The notes under the pieces: model-generated | Told to the model about the DNA's origin: nothing | The model's database searches: none | What the model saw: only the letters and a program-made list of their open reading frames with translations | Part shown: positions 8,294 through 8,503 of the stretch, one piece after another | How the letters are laid out: each line of letters starts with the position of its first letter | How positions within the stretch are numbered: the first letter of the stretch is position 1 | Position numbers and translations under genes: made by a program | UHGV virus genome: UHGV-0134101 | Origin: a virus | Length of the DNA stretch: 10,004 nt | Direction: 5' to 3' (one strand)

Positions 8294-8503
8294 CTACTTC
8301 ACAGCTTTACTACCCTTCCTGACTATCTCCGCCGCATCCCTGTTCACCCCCTTCCCTATCACGTTTCCCGTTTCCTTCCGGTACCGTTCCAGCTTGTCGA
8401 TGATGTTTTGCTGGGTCATAGGTAAATCTGCCAGTGACAACTCCATGACCGCCCGCCCCATGGCGTGAACCATCATGTTCACTCTTTCTTCATCCAAGTC
8501 CAT
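8294..8503 (-). CDS. Small hypothetical protein, 69 aa, convergent with the cI operon
   Basis: ORF track 8294..8503 with a strong AAGGAG Shine-Dalgarno 6 nt upstream of the ATG at 8503. Its promoter must lie in the AT-rich operator region 8504-8650. Confidence 0.6.
   Translation of the reverse strand: MDLDEERVNMMVHAMGRAVMELSLADLPMTQQNIIDKLERYRKETGNVIGKGVNRDAAEIVRKGSKAVK

Follow-up and report, generated by a model that had tools for sequence, protein, structure and literature searches.

In phage lambda, rexAB are accessory genes that lie downstream of cI and are expressed in the lysogen. On the host side, the closest described system is AriR/YmgB (b1166; PDB 2OXL; Pfam PF10798), a small dimeric protein that has the paralogues YmgA and YcgZ and is encoded in the BluR-controlled chromosomal ycgZ-ymgABC operon. 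AriR activates the Rcs phosphorelay, leading to rcsB-dependent mucoidy (PMC10704370), and also binds the TGS-helical domains of SpoT directly, thereby raising ppGpp (PMC10704370). These two activities, on Rcs and on SpoT, are separable and independent (PMC10704370), and most of the substitutions that cause a loss of SpoT binding fall in helix 3 of AriR, where R74G abolishes binding (PMC10704370).

The window analyzed here, a 10,004-nt stretch of the UHGV virus genome UHGV-0134101, is the immunity and early region of a lambdoid prophage, reversed relative to the usual lambda map. We focus on a small gene within it, for which the following features of the window are relevant:

3678-5389, minus strand: replication genes
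5475-6017, minus strand: YdaT-type cII analogue
6048-6293, minus strand: cro
6294-6377: OR
6305-6384: three OR operators of the cI operator type TTAAC-N5-GTTAA (two more are in OL)
6378-7154, plus strand: S24-family cI
7271-7855, plus strand: 194-aa protein, the first cargo gene, with no family match
7846-8265, plus strand: YafO-toxin-like protein of 139 aa (Pfam PF13957, 3e-16; PHROG 1651)
8264-8285, plus strand: terminator of the cI-cargo operon, a GC-rich hairpin followed by a T-run (canonical intrinsic)
8264-8540: mosaic module of terminator, small gene and its predicted -10, about 98% identical to phi80 in alignment
8294-8503, minus strand: the small gene, a 69-aa CDS (stop included) for a predicted three-helix, YmgB/AriR-like protein identical to RefSeq WP_000362427.1
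8510-8515, minus strand: Shine-Dalgarno sequence AAGGAG, 6 nt before the ATG, with a purine run in the same place in homologues
8531-8539, minus strand: predicted extended -10 TGATATGCT (TG at 8539-8538, hexamer TATGCT at 8536-8531)
8573-8604: cluster of operator half-sites (TTAACC / ATAACC, three times) between the small-gene promoter and OL, with no full operator
8612-8626 and 8636-8650: OL operators, two full 15-bp palindromes (TTAACCATTGGTTAT and ATAACCATTAGTTAA, respectively) that overlap pL
8626-8654, plus strand: predicted pL, TTGACT-17-AATAAT (TTGACT at 8626-8631, AATAAT at 8649-8654), divergent from the small gene

Like the rexAB-type "morons" of lambda, the small gene lies between cI and OL/pL, is not needed for the core switch, and is plausibly expressed in the prophage. 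Unlike rexAB and the cargo genes of this region, which are co-transcribed with cI and vary between phages, it sits on the opposite strand, has a promoter motif of its own, and is conserved while the cargo changes. It is convergent with the terminator of the cI operon and divergent from pL/OL; the anatomy described in the first-pass annotation, with transcription directed toward the cI operon from a start beside the OL operators, was correct.

The evidence that the 69-codon ORF codes for protein is far beyond chance, and the gene is both real and strongly conserved. It starts with an ATG at 8503-8501 on the minus strand, and both the ORF and the near-consensus Shine-Dalgarno sequence that had been read from the letters alone are present, the latter at the 6-nt spacing given above. 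Its protein is 100% identical to that of an ORF in phi80 (JX871397, 33348-33554) which was left unannotated in the phi80 GenBank record, and the two genes differ at four DNA positions, all of them synonymous third-position changes with no non-synonymous difference. The comparison with the homologue in locus L006 yielded 13 synonymous and no non-synonymous differences. Across twelve homologous genes, dN/dS was 0.02-0.2 among close homologues and 0.2-0.4 when the most divergent one (L014) was compared, as is the mark of a gene that is under strong purifying selection to judge by these substitution patterns. An overlapping ORF on the plus strand (8288-8425) differs between the window and phi80 and is not conserved.

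Homologues of the small protein are numerous, forming 490 clusters at 90% identity and 51 clusters at 50% identity, and all named homologue matches come from Enterobacterales and are labelled hypothetical, as is the identical RefSeq protein WP_000362427.1 itself ("hypothetical protein"). The protein is a member of PHROG 3975, which it matches over the full length of the profile (E = 7.1e-35; residues 2-65 aligned to positions 5-68 of 68). PHROGs assigns this family neither a function nor a fold; the relationship to AriR discussed below is an addition of the present analysis. Searches of the 69-aa protein against Pfam (E<=0.1), NCBIfam and PADLOC gave nothing significant. Weak Pfam matches of single family members to FakA-like_C and DUF6240 were dropped, there being no fold or context support for them, and P0278, a 1312-aa protein retrieved in the representative search, was discarded as a low-complexity repeat protein.

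Examination of the genomic context placed these homologues in one and the same slot. The order of cI operon end, small gene and OL-pL, as well as the orientation, is shared by the window with phi80, HK639 (gene 46) and HK225 (gene 42), and it recurs in 18 of 22 genome loci that we collected by a family-specific peptide pattern: in each of these 18, the roughly 2 kb downstream of the gene include a convergent S24 or HTH repressor, and the upstream side usually carries kil or other early-left genes. Of the remaining four, L012 is on a contig too short for a call, L023 is a truncated remnant, and L024 and L027 have neighbours of another kind. A 44%-identical homologue in SW-37, whose record is unannotated, also has an HTH-type repressor ORF convergent with it about 1.7 kb downstream. 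Homologues at this slot have amino acid identities of 44 to 100%. The block of about 98% identity with phi80 still includes some 37 nt upstream of the small gene, and to the right of it lies immunity-specific operator DNA that does not align with phi80. The small gene is part of the backbone of phi80-, HK639- and HK225-type lambdoid immunity regions.

To obtain a structural model we used AlphaFold2 with a family alignment of 24 sequences as input. The model (mean pLDDT 92.5) consists of three helices, at residues 5-24, 31-44 and 48-67, and has the three-helix fold of PDB 2OXL, the AriR structure. A Foldseek search with the model retrieved 2OXL with a probability of 1.00 and TM-scores of 0.74/0.82, the next match having an E-value of 1.2; a search of viral structures in BFVD gave no match below E = 0.4. 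Sequence comparisons point the same way at lower strength. The family HMM searched against PDB matched 2OXL only (E = 0.071), and BLASTP aligned the small protein with AriR at 31% identity over 49 aa. With hhalign, a 14-sequence AriR alignment was matched at E = 8e-5, but with only 61% probability over 48 columns, and a 3-sequence alignment of AriR, YmgA and YcgZ was matched weakly (39%). Among the K-12 paralogues the family HMM scored AriR highest (16.6 bits, as compared to 5.4 for YmgA and 3.7 for YcgZ).

All alignments with AriR follow one register, pairing G16 of the phage protein with G35, V19 with V38, N33-I34-I35 with N52-I53-I54, L38 with L57, R55 with R74, and E59-I60-V61 with E78-I79-V80. 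The core residues of AriR (G35, N52-I53-I54, L57, R74 and E78-I79-V80) therefore have counterparts in the phage protein, and within the phage family G16, L38 and R55 are invariant and I34 and E59 are conserved in at least 90% of members. The correspondence between R55 and the SpoT-binding residue R74 has one aligned residue as its sole basis. The phage protein also differs from AriR in several respects. Its identity to AriR is only about 25-31%; the gathering threshold of PF10798 is not reached, with one of the 24 family members matching at E = 0.16; and the N-terminal segment of AriR (approximately residues 1-30, including the Y19-F20 motif) has no counterpart in the phage proteins, which begin about 4 residues before helix 1. 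Moreover, the phage gene stands alone beside pL whereas ariR is part of a chromosomal operon, and the phage protein, unlike AriR, carries its own invariant helix 3 motif, GNVIxKGxxRDAAE. Convergence among three-helix bundles can mimic a relationship of this kind. On the model, we place the phage proteins, a family of 65-70 aa, within the AriR/YmgB fold but outside PF10798, as a distant branch carried by phages, a placement that is weakly supported by sequence.

Conservation within the family is concentrated in the loop and helix 3, which hold 9 of the 13 invariant columns (G46, N47, K51, G52, R55, D56, A57, A58 and G64). The family has two main clades, with about 45% identity between them in helices 1 and 2 and hardly any change in helix 3, and helix 3 is near-constant across phages of Escherichia, Enterobacter, Klebsiella, Citrobacter, Salmonella and Kluyvera. 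Such a pattern would be expected if helix 3 forms the contact surface for a conserved protein of the host.

Inspection of the upstream region suggests that the small gene has its own promoter, of the extended -10 type, as predicted from the motif listed above, with a transcription start near 8524 and a weak -35 around 8554-8559. The window, phi80 and HK225 share the conserved sequence GTGATATGCTGAAAAAAACATCA upstream of the Shine-Dalgarno sequence, and its version in HK639 is GTGCTATGCTCACAAAAACAGCA. Of 26 phage and genome loci, 17 have a motif of the form TGnTA(T/C)G(C/A)T at 32-37 nt upstream of the start codon. Two further loci have it at -54, with translation there probably beginning 18 nt farther upstream, and near-misses occur in four others. 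At least three immunity types share this -10 motif, and the operator DNA that flanks it differs between them. Since the motif is conserved across immunity types and the operators are not, the predicted core promoter is independent of immunity type. A generic sigma-70 scan for two hexamers did not call the small-gene promoter, because its -35 is weak and A/T-rich, as in promoters of the extended -10 type.

At the other end of the gene, the hairpin at 8264-8285 that terminates the cI-cargo operon also forms in minus-strand RNA, just past the small-gene stop, where it is followed by UAAUAAUGUU. Its tail on this strand (8285-8264) is only moderately U-rich, and the hairpin may act as a weak bidirectional terminator. 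We propose no RNA element for the 5' leader or the terminator region, which folded no better than shuffled sequences (z about -1.8 to -1.9), and a search of the whole window against Rfam found nothing at gathering thresholds, with only sub-threshold matches on the terminator hairpin.

The position of the predicted promoter relative to the operators bears on when the gene would be expressed. The operator core TAAC-N5-GTTA matches perfectly at five sites of the 10 kb window, of which three belong to OR and two to OL, against an expectation of 0.53 matches, and the predicted pL corresponds to the annotated pL of phi80. Between the -10 hexamer of the small gene (8536-8531) and the nearest full operator there are about 70 bp, in which half-sites but no complete operators occur. 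We propose expression in the lysogen because the promoter in this phage falls outside the operators that shut off pL; the small gene would at least not be shut off along with pL, and hence would be lysogen-expressed.

Our preferred reading is that the small gene encodes a self-promoted, prophage-borne AriR-like connector. The gene's extended -10 promoter would drive production of the protein, probably in the lysogen too, through a transcript that would run into the shared hairpin at 8285-8264. It would act in the manner of AriR, with its nearly invariant third helix binding a conserved host signalling protein, for which the best candidates would be SpoT (raising ppGpp) and/or the Rcs phosphorelay (affecting capsule, biofilm and acid resistance), and the outcome would be a changed host physiology or a biased balance between lysis and lysogeny. 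The analysis shows a genuine gene in a conserved position, with a conserved promoter motif and a matching fold; its expression pattern, target and phenotype are what we infer, and the small protein probably alters host signalling in some form; the complete chain, from the gene's own promoter to modulation of SpoT/ppGpp and/or Rcs, we put tentatively at slightly less than an even chance.

An alternative reading, which we consider unlikely, is that the small protein is a phage-internal regulator of lysis and lysogeny, which might act as an anti-repressor, modulate the cleavage of cI or pair with another early phage protein, and which would be under the control of cI through OL. The gene invariably resides in the immunity region beside OL/pL. 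The third OL operator annotated in phi80 reaches up to the predicted -35 of the small gene and is centred near -44, resembling OR2 relative to pRM, and in the immunity group of the window the half-sites at -50 to -80 are conserved: the cluster is found in two same-immunity loci (L006 and L014), and in L014 a 10-bp deletion, equivalent to one helical turn, adjoins it between the half-sites and the -10. Such arrangements would fit control by cI, but the conservation of the core promoter does not follow immunity type. The protein, furthermore, is identical or nearly so among phages whose cI DNA-binding domains and operators are unrelated, being identical beside a cI with a different DNA-binding domain and still 87% identical beside a cI that is only 25% identical. 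This lack of co-variation between the small protein and cI argues against an immunity-specific anti-repressor. No Ant, Bro-N or KilA-N-type domain was found in the 69-aa protein with Pfam, PHROG or NCBIfam, and no LexA box (CTGT-N8-ACAG, allowing up to one mismatch) is present beyond 7041 in the window. Finally, the sole structural relative of the protein acts on host proteins. The first-pass annotation had suggested a small regulator such as an anti-repressor; a regulator is still plausible, whereas the anti-repressor part of the suggestion finds neither a domain, a LexA box nor co-variation with cI.

A second alternative accepts the fold and questions the partner: the protein might be an Hha-like modulator, or one of the nucleoid-associated kind, whose targets are DNA or H-NS-type proteins and not SpoT or Rcs. 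The protein is small and helical, has a basic C-terminal tail (RKGSKAVK), and shares the fold of AriR, whose 2OXL entry title ties YmgB to the regulation of biofilm and acid resistance; the 2007 paper on 2OXL reportedly compared AriR with Hha and described effects on gene expression. We assign this possibility a low probability, below that of a switch regulator.

The first-pass annotation had also raised the idea that the gene is a third component of the immunity-associated cassette, that is, an antitoxin or regulator belonging with the 194-aa ORF and the YafO-like toxin. The two are close, with 29 nt separating the small gene from the stop of the YafO-like gene and the terminator hairpin shared between them, but the small gene is on the opposite strand, convergent, and not co-transcribed with the cassette, and the mosaic joint with phi80 falls between the cassette and the terminator. 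Its distribution contradicts the idea outright. In phi80, HK639, HK225 and most loci the gene occurs without this cassette, the cargo between small gene and cI being 40A/DUF7946 in phi80, three unknown genes in HK639, and HK97 gp48/49-like genes in HK225, and in L014 and L021 there is no cargo at all, such that the small gene directly adjoins cI. Conversely, the YafO-like cassette (99.5-100% amino acid identity) is also present behind an HK639-type cI in Enterobacter bugandensis (L011, 5326-6320). Cargo that varies or is absent, together with the recurrence of the cassette in L011, indicates that the cassette is mobile and that the small gene is backbone and not its third component; we dropped the cassette reading as very improbable. 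The least probable reading, a chance ORF or a decaying remnant without function, could draw on the missing annotation in the phi80 record and on the lack of a Pfam family, but we judge it next to impossible and dropped it given the strong purifying selection, the hundreds of homologue clusters, the confidently predicted compact fold, and the conserved ribosome-binding site and promoter motif.

DH5alpha, DH10B/NEB10-beta and XL10-Gold still carry the small gene in their phi80 remnant; it is missing from the phi80 GenBank annotation, yet present in widely used laboratory strains. Literature searches on phage AriR/YmgB-like proteins and on the phi80/HK639 region turned up neither a description of this gene nor a paper on any phage protein resembling AriR/YmgB, and a paper on phi80 and persisters (PMC5727415) contained nothing relevant to it. 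If the AriR-like reading is true, phi80 and its relatives encode a connector to host signalling within their immunity region. Carrying the prophage would then bear directly on the stringent response, on the Rcs envelope-stress system, or on both, and these two pathways influence the choice between lysis and lysogeny, tolerance to antibiotics, capsule production, and resistance to other phages. Attention would also fall on an unannotated gene that common laboratory strains carry. Phage-associated transfer was put forward by Tschowri et al. as the origin of the ymgAB locus (bluR-bluF-ycgZ-ymgAB) (PMC3509220), and a phage-borne relative of AriR, if confirmed as such, would support that proposal.

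The most far-reaching form of the AriR-like reading would have phi80-type prophages carry a dedicated, self-promoted AriR mimic whose invariant RDAAE helix binds SpoT or an Rcs component, thereby setting ppGpp or envelope-stress signalling in lysogens or during early infection and tuning lysogenisation, the induction threshold, stress tolerance, and capsule or biofilm formation. In this extended form the chromosomal ycgZ-ymgAB genes would have descended from such phage genes, and its survival in standard cloning strains would make the phage gene a physiological variable that has been overlooked there. We regard the extended version, with all of its parts, as speculative and improbable.

Several further observations concern the neighbouring genes. 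The 194-aa ORF overlaps the YafO-like gene by 10 nt and is roughly double a YafN-type antitoxin in size, and the pair has no PADLOC match; its presence behind the HK639-type cI in L011 indicates that the two genes move as a unit between immunity types. The cI of the window is itself a mosaic. From about residue 90 onward, covering the linker and the S24 domain, it is roughly 85-90% identical to phi80 cI, and its N-terminal DNA-binding domain differs from that of phi80, as does the operator. The cI region (6378-7154, plus strand) shows in clean form how immunity is swapped when domains are exchanged.

The early leftward region beyond pL is also composed of patches. The first ~85 nt of the pL transcript (8656-8740, plus strand; CCATCGAAACGAAACATCGACAGCTGAGCGAAGTTAGCCAGCGGCGGA...) are almost identical in the window and in phi80, which is of the N/nut type, and HK639, which is of the put-RNA type, shares the initial ~48 nt (8656 to about 8704); in the upstream region of HK225, at least the opening CGAAACGAAACATCG of this leader is present. 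Counterparts of the leader lie at about 2890-2975 of L001, at about 2830-2872 of L002, and in L003. The leader is conserved though the operators just upstream differ, and it contains a small hairpin at 8701-8718. The adjoining stretch (8741-9146) matches neither phi80 nor HK639, with no evident N-like ORF and no Rfam match. From 9147 onward (9147-9622) the window is 98% identical to HK639, including the homologue of HK639_45, and this segment holds only the 3' third of the "putL-like antiterminator RNA" annotated in HK639.

Antisense to the pL leader and overlapping its conserved sequence, a 75-aa ORF (8643-8870, minus strand) matches a RefSeq hypothetical protein of strain CX21 (WP_134393345.1) and no family, and is probably a spurious call. 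Further on, two long ORFs overlap on opposite strands. The plus-strand ORF (9194-9541) was annotated as gene 45 by the HK639 authors and matches PHROG 29546 at 2.7e-4, and the minus-strand ORF (9281-9775) is named "ECs_2282 family putative zinc-binding protein" in RefSeq, matches PHROG 4852 at 3e-8, and has weak zinc-ribbon matches. In HK639 itself, the annotated start of gene 46 (L002, 2485-2721) lies inside the conserved extended -10 motif, and the homologous start, with an AGGAGG Shine-Dalgarno sequence, is found 13 codons downstream; the GenBank CDS of HK639 gene 46 is therefore probably too long.
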